DNA from: Podospora anserina
Taxonomy: Eukaryota
NCBI GenBank assembly: GCA_017654855.1
Contig: CM030337.1
Location: 3,100,001 to 3,164,000, forward strand
Reading direction: 5' to 3'
DNA: 64,000 bases
The notes beneath the pieces are model-generated. The model made no database searches, was not told the origin of the DNA, and saw nothing but the letters and a program-made list of their open reading frames with translations. The translations under genes were made by a program, and so were the position numbers. This document shows, piece by piece, positions 19,708 through 38,838 of the stretch. Numbering within the stretch: position 1 is the stretch's first letter; each line of letters opens with the position of its first letter.

Positions 19708-20884
19708 TCGAGATCGCTTCTGTTTTGAGGAGGCAAGGAATTCGGGCTCTGGTAGATGTAAGTAGAATCTTTATCAACAGGTACGATCATCCTTCCCAAA
19801 TGGTGATATGGAACTGTAAAGACAGCTGCTCTTGAAGTGAACGACTAGACAAAAGAAGGTATCTATCAGATTCAGCATGGCGATTTGGTAATAGGTAGGT
19901 AAGTGGTAATGAATATGGGAGTATGAAAGAGTGGAGGAGAAAAGAAAAAAGAAGAAAAAATCAAGCCCAGACAGAGCTACCCAACCCTGTCTCGAACGGG
20001 GTAGCTCTCGACTGCCCAGTAGCCTTAACCCGTGGATGAAGTGCGAAAAGGGTCCCTGGGACACAGTCGAGCACCTTAACTAACTAGGCCATGGGCAATT
20101 TTATTGAAAAGAAGGTCTCCAATGCAGTGTATAAACCCCACCATGGCCCCTTTCTCTGTTATTGGGTCGCAAGAGGCCGTCTGCTCCCTCCTTCCCGGCG
20201 GTGATATAACATTGCCGGGCCCGGAGAGCACGCATTCGATGTGGGCAATTCAGACTTTTTCTTCCTTTTCCTCATGCGACTTGCTCCTGGACACGCGCCC
20301 CATAGACACCCACAAAGAAGCCATCCGAAGTAATTAGTTCTTCTCCGCCATTCTACAGCACCAATCTAGCCGGTTTTGGGGAGGATAGTACAGGACGGTA
20401 TTATGACCTATAAGTTTTGACCGCCCCTGTGCATCGTCACCTCAACTACTGTTGCCCGGGAGCTACATACGCGAAAGCTCCTGGGTAGTTGAGCCCTGAG
20501 ATTCAGTACCACCATGCGAAGTCCTGTTCAAGTGGTGGAATCTCATGACAGGTTCAAGTCTCCGCCAATACCGAGGAGGCTTCTTATTATATCTGGACCT
20601 CCCTCCTCTCCTTCCAATCTTAACCTTCCCCGTACTCTCTGACCTCAGTCAACCAACTACCCCCATCCTTGACATTATAACAGTTCGTTTTGAAAGTATG
20701 CTAACATCTCGCAATCACAACACCGCTAATACTCGTTATTTACAGGCTCATCTCTTCGGGGAGCAACCGTGCTACTGAACGAAACCAAACGGCCCCTTCA
20801 CTCCCGTATTCCAATTCGGGTGCATGTGGAATTGGGAATTGAGGATACAGAAAAGCGTGCTGGTAAGCGGTTTCGGGGCGAAAA

Positions 20885-21670
20885 TTGGGATTGGGCCGCG
20901 ACCGGATTTGGATAACACCGCGCTTTGAAGCGCCCGACGAGAGCGCAGAAACGGATTACGACGAGCCCGGCGGTCATAGCACCGCCAGCAACCCCCTCCA
21001 GCAGCGCCCACAGGTGTTGTACTCTGCGGTTGTTGGGACGATTAAAGTTCAACCGCGGACCGAAGCCCTGCAATTGCTGCGACGATCAGCCAACTGCCTG
21101 ACGTCGAAGAAGATGCTGTTCGTCTGGTGTATTGCGTTGATGATCCTCCGGCTACGCCTCACCCCAAGAGTTGGAAGGGCAGAGGTGTTTGTGTTATCCG
21201 ACAGCCAACAGGCACTCTCGATGTTGGATAGATGTCCGTTCAGGGCACCAGGGTTTACGCTGACGACGATGCCGTTATACATTCATTTGGCTGAACTCAC
21301 CAGTAAGCTTCAGGAGTTGGGTGGCCTCCTGACAATTCGTGGGTCCTTGGGCACAATCACAACTTTACTGTGCATCAGCTGGCAGAGGAAGTAGTCCATA
21401 TGGCATTTTCTTGATAGTATGTGGGAGTTACCAACACATCGGCATCGAGAAGGAAATTCCCCTATATAACCCATTATGCTGGGCAGATCTCTTGGCGCAC
21501 TTCAACAGTTTCGGGACAAGCATCCGACAGTGGATGTCAACATCAGCACCTCAGCATACAGACAAGCCCATAACAAGTGTTTGAGGCTGAAGAAGTTTCC
21601 TCGTCCCTGGGATTGGGCTCTGCATCACCAAATTATGGAGCTGAAGGAGGATTTGTTTCACATTATTTGA
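20885..21670 (+). pseudogene. RNase H-fold family paralog 1, frameshifted and internally deleted
   Basis: Across frames it reads EALQ/AATISQLPDVEEDAVRLVYCVD//ILRLRL...EVFVLSDSQQAL...PLYIHLAELTSKLQELG..TI/WVLGHNHNFTVH, colinear with the ORFs at 29323 and 35093. Shifts near 21074 and 21338; deletion junction near 21142. Boundaries are approximate. Confidence 0.8.
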
Positions 21671-28309: not shown

Positions 28310-29322
28310 TGAGGCTCTGGAGGTGGTACGCTCTTCACAATACCTCAGAGGCCCCGGGCTTTGAATTGGGTAGAAGCCGCAGCCGCCTGAGAGAGCATGG
28401 GAGCAAATCATCAGCCAATCGGAGTGGTTTTTGCATTGGTGGGTCGATTTGACCGGCCTGCTGGGCTCTGTCAAGTCGTCATCCGTCCAACAATTGCCAG
28501 CTGAGCTTTCTGATGTACCACGTCAGATCATTTTGCAGCATCATCATTCTCTTTTGCAGTGAATGTCACAGATCTGTAATATTGTTACAGTTGGATATTT
28601 GACAGTCATGACTCGAGGCTCGGCCTCGGGATTACCCTCCATTTCTGGCACGGTCACTCTGTGGGTAAGATTCGTGATTGTATAAAGCTAGCTTCACCTT
28701 TTTGACGCTCCGTGTCCTTCCTGTCCCATCCATTTAATTACCTACCATACCTTCATCAACAAATATTCGACTCTCTTAATGAAATGTGTTCAAGGTCCAT
28801 CATTCCAATAACTTGCGTATATACTACATCATGCCTCACTAATGTGGAAGGAGGTAGGTGAGCTCCTTCCCTCCATGGAGGTCCCACTTCGGCAAGCGGG
28901 CGTGTTCTCTTGTTCTGTTGAATAGGGAAATGGCCCTCACAACTTCATTGAATTCCTCTGGTTAGGCACGCATCATCAACGAACACCCACTTTTCTTCTC
29001 CAACAGCCTCCCTGGATAGAGGGTAGCTAGCGGCAGATGACTAAGTCCGCTGATGCATGATTTGTTTCGAGCTGTTTTAGGATCAACTTCCATCACTCAA
29101 ACTTTCAACCTTTTGACCTTTTGACTTTCCAGAAAGTCCATTCAATCCTGTTCGTCTGAGTCACATCTCAGCTAAACACGAGGTTACATTGCCTCACCGC
29201 GGTTGCTATCCCTTGTTTACCGTGCAGGACTGCCTCAGAATGACTGGATCCTTCGTTGAAAGAGGTTCATTAGTACCGGATGTTTTTGCTAATGTATTTT
29301 CATTTATCCAGATGGACAAGAT

Positions 29323-30288
29323 ATGCTTTCGTTAAAGAAATACCGGACGCCGATAAAAAGGACATTGGACGACCTTCAAACCGACGAAGCCCAAGTCGGA
29401 ATCAGACAGGCCAAATCAGATGATCTTAGTAAAAAATACCCTTTTCTACTCCGGGATGGCAAAGAGGACGAAGGACCGATATTTTATCCGATGCCTCCAA
29501 GCCCAAACTTCCTGCAGCTATTTTCGAATCACTACCCGAAGCTGTTAGCCCGAATCGAAGACCAGCAAATGAATCGGGAGGCTGCACTGGCATATGCTGC
29601 CTATATTGAAGCATTGCCACGGAAAGAAGGAGACATTGTTCGGTTGATCTATGGCATGGATGGTTCAGCCACATTGCAGTTCGACTGGGAACCCGTCCCA
29701 GGCTCCTTTGCTATATGTCTAGATGCAAGGATAGACGACGGACATTTTGTTGGAAAATCACAGGGGTTCTTTATCGATGAGGTCCCATCAATCCACTGGG
29801 CCGAGCTCATGGGAATCACTGAAGCAGTGCATCAGACCGTTCTTCGCCGCCGTAAGGCTATACCGTCCCGGGGTGAGCTGTACATACTCACTGACAGCGC
29901 TCAAGTTCTCGAGTATTTGCAACGATATCCACACGAAGTCCCGGTTAACAAGCTGGCAATGGCGCCGGTGTACGATTATTTGGTGAAGCTATCAGAAGAG
30001 CTGGATAAGATGGGATGGGTGTTTACGATTGCTTGGGTGCCTGGGCACCGTCACCAAATCAGATGTCACATCAAAAGTGATAGAAAGGCAAGAAAAACCA
30101 GAAGGGAAGGTTTTAAAACCATTAAGAAGCTACTCGACTGGCCTGACACAATCCCAACACCACTGGCTATGTCGGATGCTACCTATTTTGCGCCGATGAC
30201 GCATAGTTCGATATGGCCTTCCTGCATGCCAGGAGCATGGAGGCTATCCGCAATTTACCACCGCTTTTGCATATATGGATCTTTTTAA
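29323..30288 (+). CDS. RNase H-fold family paralog 2 (complete acidic core; C-terminal segment out of frame to 30403)
   Basis: YGMDGS, WAELMGITEA, YILTDSAQVL, AWVPGH, HIKSD equal the RNase HI-type D-E-D-H-D set. Branch site plus acceptor ending at 29311; possible exon 1 at 29240-29264 with a weak GTTCAT donor. May be a recent pseudogene. Confidence 0.8.
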   Translation: MLSLKKYRTPIKRTLDDLQTDEAQVGIRQAKSDDLSKKYPFLLRDGKEDEGPIFYPMPPSPNFLQLFSNHYPKLLARIEDQQMNREAALAYAAYIEALPRKEGDIVRLIYGMDGSATLQFDWEPVPGSFAICLDARIDDGHFVGKSQGFFIDEVPSIHWAELMGITEAVHQTVLRRRKAIPSRGELYILTDSAQVLEYLQRYPHEVPVNKLAMAPVYDYLVKLSEELDKMGWVFTIAWVPGHRHQIRCHIKSDRKARKTRREGFKTIKKLLDWPDTIPTPLAMSDATYFAPMTHSSIWPSCMPGAWRLSAIYHRFCIYGSF

Positions 30289-30299
30289 GCCATCAGAGA

Positions 30300-31560
30300 C
30301 GTATAATATCCTGTACTAGTTTTACATTAATGCGGTTGAGGGTGGGGTAGAGACGCCCAAGGAAATTCGAATTAGGGGGGAAGAGCTACTAAGAATCAGA
30401 TGAGAGGTGCTTTAGAGTCGGGGCTGGAAACTGAAGCCTGAGGGAGCTGGAAGTATAAAGACTCCATAGGAAGGTGGAAGCAAATTATGTTAGGGGCAGC
30501 TAAGAGTTTTAACGGGATCCCAAACGTCTACCTAGGATAGGTATGTCTTAGTAGTTAGGGAAATTGAAGATCGGCCACCTTCCCGAATGGACCGGATAAA
30601 CTTTTGTTAAGTATCCGTCTATTACTATCTTTAACTTTTGTCTTTAACTGATTTAATAACTAATAGTACTAGCATTAAACCCAATCCCGTCTTGGGAGTG
30701 GAAATAACTCTGGACTTTCTTTAAAGGGTTAATATTTTATATTTGTAAATCACGGAAGATACTAACCTAATCATCAATGATGGCCAACCCCTCCTGTTAT
30801 AACTTAATAACCTCACTGCCCGATAAATAACCACTTGCTAAGCTTCCATCATAGTTTTCAAAGGTAAAATGCTAAATAATCTTTTAAACTCTTCCAAGAG
30901 GTGACCGGAAATTTTCCGGAAGGGAAAGTATAGTGCATTTGCAATATGCCTATCTAAACTTCGAGGACACCGGGGATTATTTTTTATAAAGGCACTATCT
31001 TGAGAGTAGATTGAGGTGATGTCAATGGGTGACCCTGGGCACCAGTAGGTTCTTGTTTTGCGGTTAACTATTCCGTCGGTCGAGGTCAACTCTACATAGG
31101 GATTCAGAAATTGTGGTAATATCCTACGTTTTCGGAAGAGGGATCCTAACTACACACCTTATCACTAAGGTAGTTGATCTTAATACCGGTCTATAGGTAC
31201 CTAGTGTCTCTCTCGAGGAGTTGGGCTAAAGAGGATTCGAGCTGATAATTTCCTGGATACCAGGATATAATTACCAGATTATTATTGCACTCCCCTCCAC
31301 TGCTGTTGGCAACCAACTCGCTCTTTACACCATTTAGATATCAGCCTTAGCATTATAGTACTTGAAGGCTTCTCACTTTACGCCCCGCTACCTTCTTGAA
31401 ACACAAATAGACTTGGGGAACTGTCTATGTAATCTTAGAGACGGTACCTAAGGGTGTATGATGTAAGTACATATGCTCCTGCAAAGCCTTTTGTATGCTC
31501 AGAATAGACATCTCTTGATGATTTAAATCGAGCATTTCACGTACCAAATAGCTATTTACA
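30300..31560. other. AT-rich, TpA-enriched degenerate block consistent with RIP
   Basis: For example TATTACTATCTTTAACTTTTGTCTTTAACTGATTTAATAACTAATAGTACTAGCATTAAA (about 30620-30680); no credible long ORF. Judged by eye. Confidence 0.6.
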
Positions 31561-32355
31561 GTATTGATAGGTAATCTGTGCTAGATGGAAGCGATTTGTC
31601 TCTCAGGGAACTGGACAAGTAGATGCGGGTATTGTTAGAGGAGGTCCTGTTTTTGAAATAAGGAAGTGCAGACCTACGCCAGAGGAACTCTCGATAACAG
31701 CAGCCCTGACTATGTTGTCGACAATGGAATTGAGCGCGCCTTCTAGTTTTGCGTGGACAAAATTTTATAACCACAAACACTCCCTCTTTCAAACAGCTGT
31801 TTTTCTTTGCAACGCAGTCAACCAAAATAAACCAAGAGATCGAAGAAAATGGGTAAGCAACTAATTCATTTTCGATACAGACTCCTCGCCAGTAAGCGTT
31901 CGACTACGCTACCAGCAAGCGTTAATTACAACGACGGTACTCGCTCAGATGACATCAGCTACGCTTCGAGGCGCTCAGGACTGCTTGTTTTATTCGCTCG
32001 GCGACAAGCCGTAACCTATCCGAGCTTTTGCATATGTTAGTATTTGTTGCTAACATTCTATTTTTGAAAGCTACTCCTTACATACAAATACCGGCGGACC
32101 TTAAACCCCCATGGAAATGTAAAATCGAAGATGTCGAGAGATGAGGCTGGTCCTGCCATTCTTGAAGATATGGACAGCTATTTCCTGTCCAAGCGCTTTA
32201 AGAGAAGCAATAAGGGTGATGTCCGCTTGTTATGGTGTCTGGAAATGTGCCGAGCACATCATCCTAATAGCCATGTGCTAGGCGGAACAACCGTTGGATA
32301 GCCAATAAACTGCTGACCGAAAGCTCCTTGTCCCAGGTACGGTTCTCCACTGGCA

Positions 32356-32815
32356 CTCTGATGGATTAGACAGTGACGACGTGACATTAGGCTTGGATGG
32401 TCTGCCTTGAACTCTTGCACGGCCCTGGTACCGCTTGCTTCCAAGACAGGCCATATCGAATTGATCTTGAGGGTCTTCAGCGTAGCAGAGGTCGGAGAGG
32501 AAATTGTGTTCTCGCCATCTCAGCTTCATCCAGGCCCTTCCTGATAGCCAGCACTTCCAGTCGCTGAAACTCTACTCAGCTTCGCTTGAAGCACTCAGAC
32601 TTGTCCGTTTGCGAGCGAACAAATTTGTTCCGAAGCAAGCCTCCTCTTGCCTGCAACCAAAGACTTTCGAAACCCGGTTCTGGATATTGAACAATGCAAA
32701 CGCCATTAGCGCAGTAAGCAGCATATTAAACTGCACTGTTGATCGCATAAACTATGTTGATGAGGATATCTCCGACCCTGGTAAGCGCGTCGATCTGAGA
32801 GGGGTCGGCAAATGT
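32356..32815 (-). pseudogene. RNase H-fold family paralog 4, heavily degraded
   Basis: Minus-strand fragments in order: IDALTRVGDILINIVYAINSA*, AFAL, FQRLEVLAIRKGL, NSIWPVLEASGTRAVQEFKADHP, LSNPSE. They align to paralog motifs IEALPRKEGDIVRLIYGMDGSA, AFAV, IQWLELMAITEAV, NSIWPILHAR..AVEDF, LFKPSE. Confidence 0.7.
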
Positions 32816-33361
32816 GCTATCGAGACCAATCTGTCGGTTACATCCTCACCAATAATAGTTAGACCTGGTCCCAATGCCTAGGGTACCGCCGTGTGATTGT
32901 GCTAGGCGGAGAGATCTTCGGTAGGCACTATTTTCACTCTGGTCGCCGTCGGTGAATGGCTGACTTAACTTATGCATTCTGCTTCCACTGCTGCGCCTGT
33001 AGATCTTCTACAGGCCTCTCGGGTTGTGTAGCACTAGAGACCATTTAGGCTGACAGAGAAATACTGACGCCTGAAAATCCCGTGTCTATCAATGCCGGGC
33101 GAGGTTAGACAGTGTCACTTTTCTTGCTGAGCACCGCCGGACGCTGTCTTTGAATGGTGTAAGCGATGATCATGACCATATTGCAAAGAGCGTCAAAAAC
33201 ACCGAAGAAGGCCAGGCAGCAGCACACTGTTGAGCTTTCAGTCAGCATAAATACTGGCCAAGTCCACACCCTTCCATTCTCACCCAGCACCCCTCATCAC
33301 TTTCACCGACGGTGCCATCTGCATACCTACCTCTTCGCATTCTACCCACCCATCATTCACC

Positions 33362-33931
33362 ATGAAACCCTCCACCGCCTTCGCCCTCGCCGCCCTCTGC
33401 ATCAAGAGTTGCGTGGCCGACTTCTGGATCTACGAGGCTGGCGGATTTGGCGACATTGTCCCTGTCACGTACTTCCGTTTCTACCACGACCCTCCCAAGT
33501 GCGGTACAACCGGCAATAACAACGGACAAAACTATCTCCCATACGATGATGTCAGCAAGAGAAAGGTAAATGTCTCGTCTCTGTGGCCGACTGTGAAGAT
33601 GTATTGACTGACGATAACTTCAGGGCATTGCCTGTGACGGGAACGGTTGCGAGGGTGGAAACCCCAACGAGATCACCCGTTTTGAGATGAATGTGGACTG
33701 GGGACACTACAGTACGTCGCTGCCGTCCAACCATGAGTGCTACTGGGCGATTTCTGACATGACTTGTTTGCAGCTATTTACAAGGACCGTGGCTACAGGA
33801 TGTACGACAAGAAGAACAACGTTGTGGGGCAGTGTCGTCCTGATAGATCCAAGAGCTATCTTTGTGTTGGCACCGGGCTTCCTGATGGGGCTAGTGTCTT
33901 CCACTGCACTACGTCTGTTGACAAGTTCTGA
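33362..33931 (+). CDS. Small secreted cysteine-containing protein (about 150 aa, effector-like)
   Basis: Signal MKPSTAFALAALCIKSCVA; introns 33566-33623 and 33712-33773 give ...PPKC...GIACDGNGC...HYTIYKDRGYRMYD...GQC...YLC...FHC...KF*; six Cys in the mature part. Confidence 0.85.
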
Positions 33932-34952
33932 CAGGAACGATGAGGTTGGGCAGGACATGTGAGAAGGGTTTTGAAACTGGCGTGATGGCCTGAATGTGAA
34001 AGGGAATTTGAACAGTTGTTGTTGTTTTAAGTATTAGTCGACGGGAACCTGTAAGCAAAGAAAATGAGAAACAACAAAAATAGCACTGCCTTGAAATATC
34101 GGTTCGTTTTTGATTGACTGCTCAGTTTGAAGAAAAATCTTGAAGACGCAGACAAGCCGTTAGAGTGACAAGTTGACTCGATCAAATAGCCATCGTGGCC
34201 AGGGTTGAATTTGTGAGACGCAGCGAGTGATTACGTTGCATCTTCGAGGGTTGGGCTGGTCCCTGCGCTAGGTACCTGAGTGCAAGGACCGAGGAGCAAT
34301 ACAACAATAAGCAACCAGTCAGTGGTGCAATTAGCAGAGGTGTTGGCTTTCACACTGGGGTCCCGGAGCTACTCGTTCTTGGAACATACTGGGGAATGCT
34401 CTGCAGAGAACAGTGAAGCCTGGGATCACATGGGGCGACCAACGCAAGGTCCTCTTGGAGGCAGAAATTGCTTGTTTTTTGGGTGACCTTTTCTATAGGA
34501 TCTGCACTTCTTTCCCTTCAAACCCAAAACCCTCATAATGCAACCGATGCAAGAGTTGTTACATGTTGACATTGTGTAATATGCATCATTCAACATGTGA
34601 GGAGCATCGTGACAAACTTGGGGCACAGGAGGCCGACGGTTCAATTCCGAAGTCAAGCACCATTTTGTCACGCCCTTGGGCAACATGTCCCCCACTGATA
34701 TGCCCTTTATAACCTCTGTAAACTGTGCTCCTTGGTCGGGATATTTTCCAGAAGCAACATGGAGGCCACTGCCTTCCATCTCATCATTTCATGCACATGG
34801 CTGTCACGTCGTAGGGGAGGTTTTCAACTCGACGAGGCAACCGCATCAAGGCCGGTTAGCTATGCTTACAAGCATTCTCGTTACATAGTCTACAGAAATC
34901 AAAGTTCGGCGTATCTCCCAGGTGCCCGTGTGTATCCGTGAGTAGTCCTTCT

Positions 34953-36045
34953 TTATCCCCATCTTCGCCACATAATCCTTAAGAGATCCTCCCTTCGACA
35001 CCGAACTTGCTCCGCAGTCTCTGTCCCTGCTTCAACCGCGGCAATGTAGTACTCATACAGCACTTCGTAGATTTCTGATGGTTTGAAAAGGCTCAGATAA
35101 GGGTAGGCATTCTCGAAGTCCTCGACAGCTGCTGTGTCTCTTGCATGCAGGATTGGCCATATATGGAGTTGTGTTTCGATGGTGCGAAGTGCGCGATTGG
35201 CTTTGGAGCTGTCGCAGCCTGATCGCGAAGCTCATGCAGCCTCTTTTGACATTGCCTCCGTAGATTCCGTGATTTCTTGTCGCTTCGCGCATGACATGTG
35301 ATGTGGTGGTTGTGTCCTGGTATCCAGGCGATAATCAATCCGATGCCCCTTTGGTGCAACTCTTGTGATAGTGCTACCAGATAGTCATAAACCGGCGTCA
35401 AGATCAATTTCTCGCGAAGCGTGCTGTTAGGCTCCCTCTTCAGAAAACTCAGCACATTGGCGCAATCGCTGAATATGTAGAGTTCACCACGGCGGTGGGA
35501 AGTTGATAGTCGTAACCTCAGCACAGTCTGGTGTACCGCTTCCGTGATCGCCATCAGCTCTAACCACTGAATGGACGGTGCCCTTTTCACAAAGAACCCC
35601 TGGGCTTCTCCACAGAAATCCCCCTCTTTTGTTCGTTTGTCCAAACAAACTGCAAATGCACCATACACATCATTCATGTCAGAGTGACACTCAGCTGAGC
35701 CATCAACCCCATACACAACTCGCAAAAAATCTCTATTGTCGCGTGGAAGCGACAAAACATGATCGGCGTATGCCAGCGCTTTGTCTCGGTCCGCGTCGTG
35801 GTCCTCAATTCGCGCCAGGAGTTGCGGCAGCTCGTTCGCAAACCGCACAGGGGTCGATGGGAGCGGGAGAAATGTCGGCATTTCGTCTTCCTTCCCATCC
35901 CATAACAGGAATGGGAAGCTCTTCCGCGGATTATCCAAGGGTTCGATCTTTCCGATGGTGGATCGGACGCTGTCGCTCTGGAAATCCTTCCGCGATCTTT
36001 TGGAAGGGTTTCGCAGGTTTTCTAGCGACGTGGCAGCCTGGGCAT
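34953..36045 (-). CDS. RNase H-fold family paralog 3 (complete acidic core; stop at 35093 after a frameshift, ancestral frame runs to 34953)
   Basis: YGVDGS, WLELMAITEA, YIFSDCANVL, AWIPGH, HARSD; branch TGCTAAT and TAG acceptor at 36048-36046; upstream exon not resolved; extra AT at 35159-35164 shifts the frame. Confidence 0.8.
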
Positions 36046-37484
36046 CTAATAAGACACAGATAGATTAGCATTTAGTCTTGTTCATTAGGCTCTCCAACTA
36101 GCACAACAAACGATGTATTTAAGAAGACAGATTGAGCCACAGTGCTGAATGCATCATGACTCTGCGATTGTTTTCCAAGCCTTGGTTTCACAAATCGGTG
36201 CCTGAAGGGACAGAGGTCGATTGCCGGGAGAAAAAACACAAAATCAAAGATAATCAATAAATAGTAAACACGAAAGTTACCCATGTTGGAATTTGCCTGT
36301 TGGGTCCGTGGTGACGTGGATGCGACAGATGACCGTGACGAACTGTGAAGTAGGTGGCGGGTTTGGCGAACATGCAGAAGGCCAGAAAAGATTCCAGGCA
36401 GGAAATTAGCTGGATGGGTTCGATAGACGGCACTGGCAACAGATATTGCTCTTTCCGGAAGGCGACCATGCCACAAACGTGGGTGCCTGTCGGCAACGTG
36501 GGACCACCATTGTGGGAAGGCACGACGGAGTTGCTTCCACATGACCAATTATCACCTTTGGATTCCACTGACCACCCAAACCACTCAAGTGAGCAGACAA
36601 TTCAGAACGGGGGATGTAGTATATAAGCCGAATTTCTGGACATCCTTTCAATCTGGTGCTCTTTTCCTTCCATGGCCGCAGCTTCAACAAACAAGGGACA
36701 AGCCAACAAACAAATCCATAACCACCCCCTCAAGAGCTTTGTCTGGGTACCTATCCATGAACATGGGCAAGTATCACAACACAATTTAGCTAAGGTATCA
36801 CCACATATGCTCATTGCGCAGCCAGGCCTTTCCAGTATATGCAGGCAATTGGTGGATACAAGGAATACCACAGAGTTAGAATGCTGAAATTAGATATTTA
36901 AACGCCCAGGCAGACCAACAAAGCAATGCAAAACAAGAGCAGGACCAGTGGATGGAGCATGGAATATAAATATATGTTGGTAAATATAGGTATGCATGAC
37001 TACTATTGTGAAAGAAGGGATGGTCAACTGTGAACTGGTCAGTCAGGATGACTCTGAAGCAAGGGGCGCTGGGTTAAGGTAGGTAGATAGTTACCAACTG
37101 ACTCCGAAGTGGAATGGTATGACAGCGAATCAAGTTCTTACTTCTTGATGACAACCTGCAAATGCTGGATCTAGCCATATGTCTTACATTTGTTGAAGAC
37201 TTCGCTTTCACTTAGAATGTGTGTATGTGACCGAGAAAGACAGTTGTGTGTCGGATGAGCAAAGTCCAAACTCAAAGATTGCAGTCTTACCAGAGGAGCA
37301 CAGGTTCGGCCGTGCAGGTTGATAATGATAATAGAACAAAACTTTAACAGGTAACCCCAAGTTACCTAAAATGCATCCTAAAGCTGTTACGAAGAAGTTG
37401 GGTCTTTGGGTCGCTTGAGTAAGATAAGCCGAAGACGCGAATACAAAGAAACTCAGCTGAAAGGAAGGTCAAAAAATACCCAAT

Positions 37485-37936: not shown

Positions 37937-38838
37937 TTAGCAGGTGAAGACGGCAGGTCCGGGAATGGTATAGGCTTGAGCTATAAACAGATCCATGTCA
38001 GTCTCTATTTCACAACATTTTTGAACAAAAAGGTAAAAGTGCTACGACTCACCCTTGTAAGCATCATAGGTAACACCGGGGTCGGTGCTCTTGTAGGCGC
38101 CGGGGAAGGAGACCAAGTTGGTGGGGTTGGTAGAACCGCCACCAGTAACCTGTAGCTGATGGCAACCGGGGTAGAACTGAGCACCAGGGTAGGCCCAAGC
38201 AGCATGGAGGGCAATGATCTCGTGGCGGACAAGGTAGTAGCCGGGACGAATGCAAGAGGGAATGGTGTACTGGTAAGTGGCGGGGCTCTTCATGAGAGGG
38301 GTGGCAGCCCAGTTGTTGGAGGTGCCCTCACGGCCACCTTGCTTGATTTTGAACCAGACGGCCCTTTAGAGAGGTTAGCATTTATCCTCACAACATTCGG
38401 ACAACGTGGCACATACGAGGTACCAGGAGACCAGTTCTGGCAACCGCTATCGGGGCAACGAGCCATGTAGGTAATGACGGGGCCCATGTGGGAGTCAGGC
38501 CAGAGAGTCCAGTGAAGGGTCACAGTTGAACCAGCAGCGGCAGGGGCGTGGAGAGGAGCGGGAACAGAGCCAGCATTGCACTGGACATCGATGGAGTCGA
38601 CATTCTCGACGGGACCGTTACCGGGGATGGAGCGAGAGACTCTCTGGGGCTTGTTGTTGCCCATGTAGGGGTCCATATAAGGCTGATAGAACTGTGACAC
38701 TGTTAGCATCTCGAAGCATGTCAAGAATGATCAGATGGAACTCACTTGGTAGTATTGGCCGCCAATGGTGGCATTGTCAACATAGCCGTGGGCGGCTACC
38801 AAGCCGACTGAGGCGAGAAGAGTAGCGAGAACCTTCAT
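37937..38838 (-). CDS. AA9 lytic polysaccharide monooxygenase (no CBM), similar to Neurospora PMO-3 type
   Basis: Signal MKVLATLLASVGLVAA then N-terminal His (HGYVDNATIGG); WPDSHMGP; YLVRHEIIALH; AQFYPGC; ends YTIPGPAVFTC*; three introns. Confidence 0.96.

Follow-up and report, generated by a model that had tools for sequence, protein, structure and literature searches.

Type-1 ribonuclease H (RNase H; PF00075), known from E. coli RNase HI, archaeal RNase H1, and the retroviral domain associated with reverse transcriptase, is the closest described system to a small group of genes located on a 64,000-nucleotide stretch of the Podospora anserina genome (assembly GCA_017654855.1, contig CM030337.1, positions 3,100,001 to 3,164,000). 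This stretch is called the window here, and all positions are counted from its first letter. Relatives of the genes share with type-1 RNase H the fold and the four acidic residues, but they have an additional N-terminal region and a C-terminal helical tail, and no hybrid-binding domain was seen. Nearer still are the Sordariales proteins annotated as "RNase H type-1 domain-containing protein", which include QC762_607777, QBC41DRAFT_229845 of Cercophora samala, QBC38DRAFT_444012 of Podospora fimiseda, and VTK56DRAFT_8432 of Thermocarpiscus australiensis. Two genes of the window, denoted copies 2 and 3, have their N-terminal region, core, and linker in common with this uncharacterised family. The full Sordariales members carry the tail in frame, whereas it is out of frame in copies 2 and 3 and in all copy-3 orthologues of the P. 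anserina species complex. A third comparison is given by the unitary or duplicated pseudogenes of Sordariomycetes and their repeats inactivated by repeat-induced point mutation (RIP), which resemble the locus in having several decayed neighbouring copies and an AT-rich, RIP-biased stretch. They differ from it in that the founding lesions here are insertions or deletions (indels), the cores of copies 2 and 3 have no RIP bias, and copy 3 is open, annotated, and transcribed. No publication on this family was found among the listed papers on Podospora RNase H or on fungal standalone and domesticated RNase H. We report here that the two lesions that removed the tail are genuine, and we consider it reasonably probable that they record the ordinary birth-and-death decay of a few neighbouring genes for divergent type-1 RNase H, with copy 2 as a pseudogene and copy 3 as a shortened gene.

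Copy 3 lies on the minus strand. Its exon 1 (36281–36284) supplies the ATG and one further base, a GT..AG intron (36046–36280) is placed after these first four coding bases, and exon 2 (35093–36045) translates into the N-terminal region followed by the RNase H core and linker, then a shifted end of 22 residues before the stop. Splicing of 36280–36046 yields the start M-D-A-Q, as in the NCBI model P0001 of P. pseudocomata, to which the product is 99% identical; copy 3 is the orthologue of QC762_607777 of the same species, also at 99% identity. The core frame runs through ..HNSI and then reads YGQSCMQETQQLSRTSRMPTLI up to the TGA at 35095–35093. In the −1 frame, the former tail (34953–35159) is read as WPILHARDTAAVEDFENAYPYLSLFKPSE...LLRIMWRRWG, giving 68 stop-free codons from W-P-I-L-H-A-R.. 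onward to the stop at 34955–34953. The lesion separates the I codon of the tail motif from its W codon, and here an ATATAT run (35159–35164) contains two extra bases; deletion of two bases from this run restores NSI-WPIL. The run is located within CCATATATGG, a perfect 10-base palindrome, and this is a plausible slippage hotspot for copy 3. The same shifted peptide ends all ten members of the copy-3 cluster, which was formed at 90% identity from the P. anserina species complex and has NCBI records from three named species, P. pseudocomata, P. bellae-mahoneyi, and P. comata.

Copy 3 is an annotated, transcribed, and spliced gene, whose transcript keeps the insertion and carries the old tail in its 3′ untranslated region (UTR). 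This was observed with the RNA-type assembly X18, whose contigs lie over 34888–35970 and contain a spliced joint from 36042 to 36281. One of them is gap-free over 34888–35303, where it retains the two extra bases and runs through the old tail. The proteins P0009 and P0011, encoded on short contigs of other runs (1470 and 1915 bases), also read across the exon joint. The splice acceptors differ by 3 bases between haplotypes, so that the window type begins with M-D-A-Q and the type of X18 and the DNA assembly X17 with M-A-Q, as in P0009 and P0011. The X17/X18 haplotype has three base differences at 36044, 36045, and 36048, with which the joint skips 36043–36280 as a GT..AG intron of the minus strand. 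An intron restoring the frame in copy 3 was ruled out, since 2 bases are too short and RNA-type contig and DNA run in parallel throughout 34888–35303. That the truncated protein of copy 3 still works is about an even call.

Copy 2 lies on the plus strand as an open frame of 321 codons (29323–30288), which was taken from the list of open reading frames (ORFs) and covers the N-terminal region, the RNase H core, and the linker. The core frame reaches ..HSSIWP and continues as a shifted 22-residue end, SCMPGAWRLSAIYHRFCIYGSF, to the stop at 30286–30288. Reading of the DNA in three frames located the first lesion at 30218–30220, where the codon that follows W-P in the tail motif is short of 1 base; this deletion is outside any repeat. 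The former tail (30222–30403) is now in pieces. LHARSMEAIR (30222–30251) is in frame −1, a further base has been lost at 30252–30253, and the remainder is in frame +1 with FTTAFAYMDLFKPSETYNILY, a TAG at 30317–30319, FYINAVEGGVETPKEIRIRGEELLRIR, and a TGA at 30401–30403. All five members of the copy-2 cluster that cover the first site read SIWP and then the −1 frame. The shifted frame of one of them, P0004, is colinear with the window across 30252, and the second deletion is hence common to P0004. The TAG is probably shared with it as well, as judged from V-L-G against V-L-V at the protein level, which fits CTA-G. An additional four C/T differences are implied between P0004 and the window in the old tail, all at CpA/TpA, which fits the RIP-type dinucleotide bias of the 30–32 kb region described below.

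Copy 2 is a pseudogene. Its exact sequence is present in the protein collection as P0014, which is without an NCBI record, and no NCBI gene model was found in the copy-2 cluster. Six of the eight entries in this cluster are fragments with a broken core, against none of ten in the copy-3 cluster (Fisher p = 0.0015, with entries that are not independent lineages). Among these fragments, P0017 (118 residues) ends after residue 118 and P0015 (159 residues) restarts at Met163; P0018 (114 residues) ends after residue 114, P0019 (66 residues) spans 163–228, and both P0004 and P0020 begin at Met163. There are thus at least three distinct core breaks of copy 2 in other genomes of the species complex, and the full 321-residue frame survives solely in the window's own allele group (P0014 and P0016). 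No RNA for copy 2 was found among the RNA-type assemblies listed, where the X18 contigs leave 29300–34887 uncovered and are uninformative on its expression.

Both tail-removing lesions are genuine and not assembly errors. DNA assemblies from three different studies (X9, X13, and X17) each span 29300–36300 in one contig. Among the differences from the window listed over this interval, the only indel is at 36231 in X17, and none is at either lesion site. This check rests on contigs, two of which were flagged as matching the window almost exactly and as its possible source; the third, X17, is a clearly different haplotype with 39 differing places. The X18 contig agrees with the window at the copy-3 site (35159–35164). 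The earlier note on this DNA had placed an AT insertion in copy 3 and two single-base losses plus a TAG in copy 2, and these positions proved right to within a base or two. It had also offered assembly indels as one reading of them, which is rejected by the contigs and by the lesions being shared among all ten copy-3 and all five copy-2 members. The indels of both copies are old, having arisen before the sampled members of the species complex separated.

The homology that the same note saw continuing past both stops in another frame was confirmed on the DNA. Over 59 aligned positions, the tail of copy 2 shares 54% identity with that of copy 3, about as much as the cores do (51%); tblastn gives 48–50% identity between the copies. 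A tblastn search of the window with the copy-3 tail recovered the copy-2 tail at E = 3e-15, which excludes chance and establishes homology. The two first lesions are separated by 6–7 aligned bases, and both move the tail to the −1 frame. Copy 4, which had been taken to keep NSIWPVL in one frame, indeed reads so on the minus strand from 32462. An exhaustive HMMER search with copy 3 gave 29 proteins at E ≤ 0.001, of which 17 were fetched and examined for the tail. The motif H-(N/C)-(S/A/T)-I-W-x-(V/I)-L-H-x-R-S followed by helical sequence is in frame in ten of them, and cluster look-up added P0047, P0049, and P0051. The remaining seven are the short fragment P0022, P0025 and P0027, which end with the core, P0030, which ends two residues after H-N-P-I, and the more distant RNase H proteins P0039, P0041, and P0046, which are without the motif. 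When longer proteins were searched by indexed words with the 68 residues of the tail, 41 candidates came up, none at E ≤ 0.01; in-frame tails were located only through the core search and the cluster look-up. A profile search from the family alignment returned four proteins, adding at most one named species.

P0047 (250 residues) reads ..GHNSIWPILHARS... continuously to ..RCRREDLLRIM. Together with the in-frame relatives, this shows that the in-frame tail is ancestral, as the earlier note had held from copy 4. The core of P0047 has 64% identity to that of copy 3, and its tail agrees with the out-of-frame tail of copy 3 at 48 of 63 residues (76%); the corresponding values against copy 2 are 51% and 53%. 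On the copy-3 lineage, selection therefore acted on the tail till recently, and up to a time not long before the shift the constraint on it was no weaker than that on the catalytic core. In a maximum-likelihood tree of 19 rows, the sister group of copy 2 is (P0047, (Cercophora samala, copy-3 alleles)), and this clade without copy 2 has support of 94/91. The C. samala record is partial and ends ahead of the lesion site. Since P0047 is unshifted inside the copy-3 clade, the duplication precedes the split of P0047 and the two frameshifts are separate events. The lesions also differ in type, namely +2 before W in copy 3 and −1 after W-P in copy 2. Gene conversion that transferred one frameshift between the copies was rejected by eye, as the lesions differ in kind and place and their interconversion needs extra steps. 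Two further truncations were noticed among the relatives. P0003 (163 residues) and P0047 come from two assemblies of one relative, on contigs of 11374 and 11373 bases, respectively, and this single-base difference shifts the frame just past the last catalytic motif. The end of P0030, a distant relative, falls in the same motif where copies 2 and 3 break. These truncations may be real, unrecognised introns, or assembly errors.

The Pfam family RNase_H (PF00075) matches copy 2 at E = 0.011 and copy 3 at E = 0.0097 (16.4–16.5 bits, below the gathering cut-off of 25.8). Among the 17 family members, 9 reach E ≤ 0.01, with a best value of 7.5e-8. The acidic residues of the motifs (V/M)DGS, (I/V)xEA (ITEA), (S/T)D(S/C), and H..(S/A)D are kept in both copies, and the alignment of 17 family sequences that includes them shows no variation in the E, D, and D columns. 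These four residues presumably correspond to D10, E48, D70, and D134 of E. coli RNase HI, an assignment that follows the fold match rather than a residue-level superposition. A catalytically complete core that has lost its tail is hence a fair description of copies 2 and 3 at the sequence level, and the claim of complete cores made before this analysis holds to that extent. The truncation point follows the entire RNase H domain and linker, exactly at the start of the tail module.

The fold was modelled on two relatives, P0047, which is the one 64% identical to the copy-3 core, and the more distant P0026; both models match the RNase H fold, a five-stranded mixed sheet with flanking helices. The AlphaFold model of P0047 had a mean predicted local distance difference test (pLDDT) score of 78.5 and a predicted template-modelling (pTM) score of 0.77. 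Its residues 1–155 matched RNase H1 (4e19_A) best, with Z of 13.8 and a root-mean-square deviation of 2.3 Å over 128 aligned residues. Archaeal, bacterial, human, and retroviral RNase H domains were also matched, none of them in a row covering the tail, which is predicted to form three helices (188–205, 214–230, and 236–249; pLDDT 62–81). The P0026 model (pLDDT 73.8, pTM 0.71) has a disordered linker at 281–306 and four tail helices at 311–391 with pLDDT of 84–94. Foldseek matched it to RNase H domains at E of about 5e-6 (3v1o at 4.8e-6, as well as XMRV and E. coli RNase H). Packing between core and tail was judged from the single-chain pTM values of 0.71 and 0.77, which are a weak guide. The family profile gave no match to PDB sequences at E ≤ 1, and an ESM Atlas look-up of P0026 led to generic RNase H clusters at structure TM of 0.36–0.44, adding nothing beyond Pfam.

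A hidden Markov model (HMM) of the family run over the window revealed three further relics. Copy 1 (20867–21667, plus strand) is a heavily decayed relic of a more distant family member, detected in four pieces in several frames (best E = 1.8e-12); it is nearer to the distant members and has several frameshifts in its core. Its reading N-S-P-I-stop-P-I-M-L-G-R-S places a TAA (21467–21469) exactly at the W codon of the tail motif. A paralogue relic resembling copy 3 occupies 30929–31319 on the plus strand in AT-rich sequence, where tblastn pieces (joint E = 8e-14) and three-frame reading showed it to be spread over three frames with stops. Copy 4 is a fragment (32388–32462, minus strand) that consists only of the tail start NSIWPVLEASGTRAVQEFKADHPSL in one frame; it was found by a motif scan, by tblastn at E = 0.002, and by the family HMM at E = 0.009 on the piece 32262–32519. 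The local RNase H family thus duplicates in place and then gets destroyed.

The birth-and-death account that we favour runs as follows. The ancestral protein had a short N-terminal region and a complete RNase H catalytic domain, which a disordered linker joined to a conserved helical tail at the C-terminus, opening with H-N-S-I-W-P-(V/I)-L-H-x-R-S. Copies 2 and 3 are old paralogues, duplicated before at least two other Sordariales lineages split off. Later, but still before the radiation of the species complex, copy 3 gained two bases, presumably by slippage in its AT run, and copy 2 lost its own base 6–7 bases from the copy-3 site. Copy 2 afterwards acquired the two further tail lesions, and nonsense or frameshift breaks of the core in other lineages. 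Copy 3 persists in shortened form and encodes a whole RNase H domain and a 22-residue nonsense end, with its former tail now in the 3′ UTR. That the two sites lie so near each other would then come from the choice of copies with open cores, a slippage-prone palindromic sequence, and chance; we accordingly read the coincidence as mostly ascertainment and chance. We infer both the lack of an adaptive cause and the functional state of copy 3.

Several observations weigh against such unselected decay. Most of them also speak for adaptive convergence, in which the tail was an autoinhibitory, partner-binding, or toxic module that selection removed twice while keeping the core, so as to leave a deregulated or decoy RNase H. 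Two independent first lesions fall within 7 bases of each other, in the first and most conserved motif of the tail, where a shift deletes the whole module. The probability of this is about 0.013 when lesions are uniform over approximately 1150 aligned bases, and about 0.04–0.05 when they are limited to the 300–360 bases of linker and tail, a coincidence of about 1–5%. The second figure is the fair one and the whole-alignment figure less so, because the pair was selected for open cores, which forces the lesions into the linker and tail. The coincidence is low enough that a non-random cause is possible. The TAA of copy 1 makes a third lesion within the same three codons, though copy 1 is full of other lesions. 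In this strain, the lesions of copy 2 are all downstream of the first one, with all three in the last 63 of approximately 384 codons; the two later ones would fall there by chance with p of about 0.027, and such clustering is expected if the core was useful for a while after the tail was lost. The copy-3 core shows some signs of constraint, as it is transcribed and open in ten of ten alleles, where the same set of genomes has no fewer than three breaks of copy 2. Between the window and X17, the listed differences include 22 coding ones, 13 non-synonymous and 9 synonymous, which gave a ratio of non-synonymous to synonymous polymorphism (pN/pS) of 0.44 with p = 0.07 before correction for transition bias; five of the 39 differing places of X17 are outside the listing, so that 13:9 is perhaps incomplete. 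In the models of the relatives, moreover, the tail appears as a separate helical module behind a disordered linker, and its loss need not unfold the core.

Adaptive convergence is nevertheless unlikely in our judgement. The pN/pS value is not significantly below 1 (p = 0.07), and an 882-base frame would stay open under neutrality with probability 0.46, 0.23, or 0.12 after 22, 42, or 60 substitutions, respectively. The copy-3 protein is fast-evolving, with 25 of 262 columns variable among ten alleles and up to 17 pairwise differences. The tail was recently the best-conserved part (76% against 64% for the core), which argues that it was needed. Furthermore, the pair was picked post hoc from five copies, three of which are wrecks. 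For copy 2, a lasting benefit is not visible, as its core is broken in other genomes of the complex. Lesions elsewhere that also hit the core had been named beforehand as evidence against a convergent removal of the tail, and the copy-2 fragments of other genomes are broken in just this way. Convergent removal with the core kept open stands for copy 3 only as far as its open and transcribed core goes, and selection for it is unsupported. Early pseudogenisation, also proposed in the earlier note, fits copy 2 with its three tail lesions and core fragments elsewhere, and is only a possibility for copy 3, which is open in all ten alleles and transcribed. A wider version of adaptive convergence is a long shot. 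In this version, selection would keep the tail-less copy 3 across the species complex as a deregulated or decoy nuclease, the tail would have served for regulation or for docking partners in an enzyme family whose targets might be RNA/DNA hybrids of retroelements or viruses, the divergent cross-species haplotypes would reflect genetic conflict at copy 3, and copy 2 would be a second, later abandoned run.

Recoding at the AT run, in which RNA editing, slippage during transcription, or a programmed −1 ribosomal frameshift would still give rise to the copy-3 tail, is very improbable. The tail is in the −1 frame in both copies, and that of copy 3 is stop-free over its 68 codons and lies within the transcript. 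A common −1 frame is expected by chance at even odds, however, as one of two shift classes is shared half the time. The heptamer X XXY YYZ is absent in all frames from 35242–35090 of copy 3 and from 30151–30300 of copy 2, the RNA-type contig keeps the two extra bases in its gap-free part, and the copy-2 tail would still be blocked by the second shift and the TAG. An assembly or sequencing artefact at one or both sites has next to no chance of being right, even if the copy-3 site is a dinucleotide repeat and the P0003 and P0047 assemblies of another organism differ by 1 base that changes the frame, since three DNA assemblies and one RNA-type assembly agree with the window and the annotated proteins of three other species share the shifted end.

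RIP was considered as the origin of the founding frameshifts. It makes transitions and no indels, and is commonly indicated by TpA/ApT above 0.89 together with (CpA+TpG)/(ApC+GpT) below 1.03. As indels are no product of RIP, this origin was rejected. The only kilobase of the window that passes both thresholds is 31001–32000 (1.16 and 0.97); 30001–31000 is near them (1.05 and 1.10), and the indices fail in the copy-2 core (0.64 and 1.34) and in copy 3 (0.42 and 1.43). The region 30000–32000 is the window's only AT-rich, RIP-like stretch (GC of 0.42–0.43), and it holds the relic at 30929–31319 and, at its edge, the old tail of copy 2. P0022, an ORF of 71 residues from another genome, is a heavily C-to-T-mutated version of the N-terminal part of copy 3.

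The differences between the window and X17, which carries the same organism label, are unevenly distributed. Four listed differences occur in the 5.9 kb of 29300–35224, and 30 plus one indel in 35225–36300, which is about 3%. The divergent block has its start within copy 3; in the orientation of the gene, the frameshift follows some 65 bases downstream of it. The window-type copy-3 protein is two residues from that of P. pseudocomata and nine from the X17-type allele, which groups with the alleles of P. comata and P. bellae-mahoneyi. For comparison, the genome-wide nucleotide diversity of P. anserina is 0.000492 (PMC9262711), and introgression within the species complex is reported to be commonest on chromosomes 4, 5, and 6 (PMC13449251). 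The divergent haplotype block could be due to introgression or balancing selection. Pfam scans of the ORFs over 32.5–40.2 kb detected no gene of the nucleotide-binding, leucine-rich repeat (NLR) receptor or heterokaryon-incompatibility (HET) type and no other allorecognition gene beside the block, but only a fragment of AA9 (lytic polysaccharide monooxygenase) and a glyoxalase-type domain. The AA9 match (E = 3.8e-20) is an ORF fragment at 38293–38730 on the minus strand, within the otherwise gene-poor 36–40 kb. The genes of the window are those of an ordinary fungal chromosome, such as major facilitator superfamily (MFS) transporters, a P450, flavin adenine dinucleotide (FAD) monooxygenases, GH76, and a fungal transcription factor.

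For annotation, copy 2 deserves a pseudogene flag, and the last 22 residues of the annotated copy-3 protein (the QC762_607777 orthologue group) are derived from a frameshift, with the most conserved C-terminal module of the family missing. The comparison also defines this module of an uncharacterised Sordariales RNase H family: after a disordered linker comes the motif H-N-S-I-W-P-V-L-H-x-R-S, and then three or four helices. If it is true that the tail-less copy 3 is under selection, the locus would be a natural experiment on the function of the tail, and the haplotype block that starts inside the gene would be worth population-genetic attention. For now, the locus offers a neat example of how a gene family decays in a model fungus.

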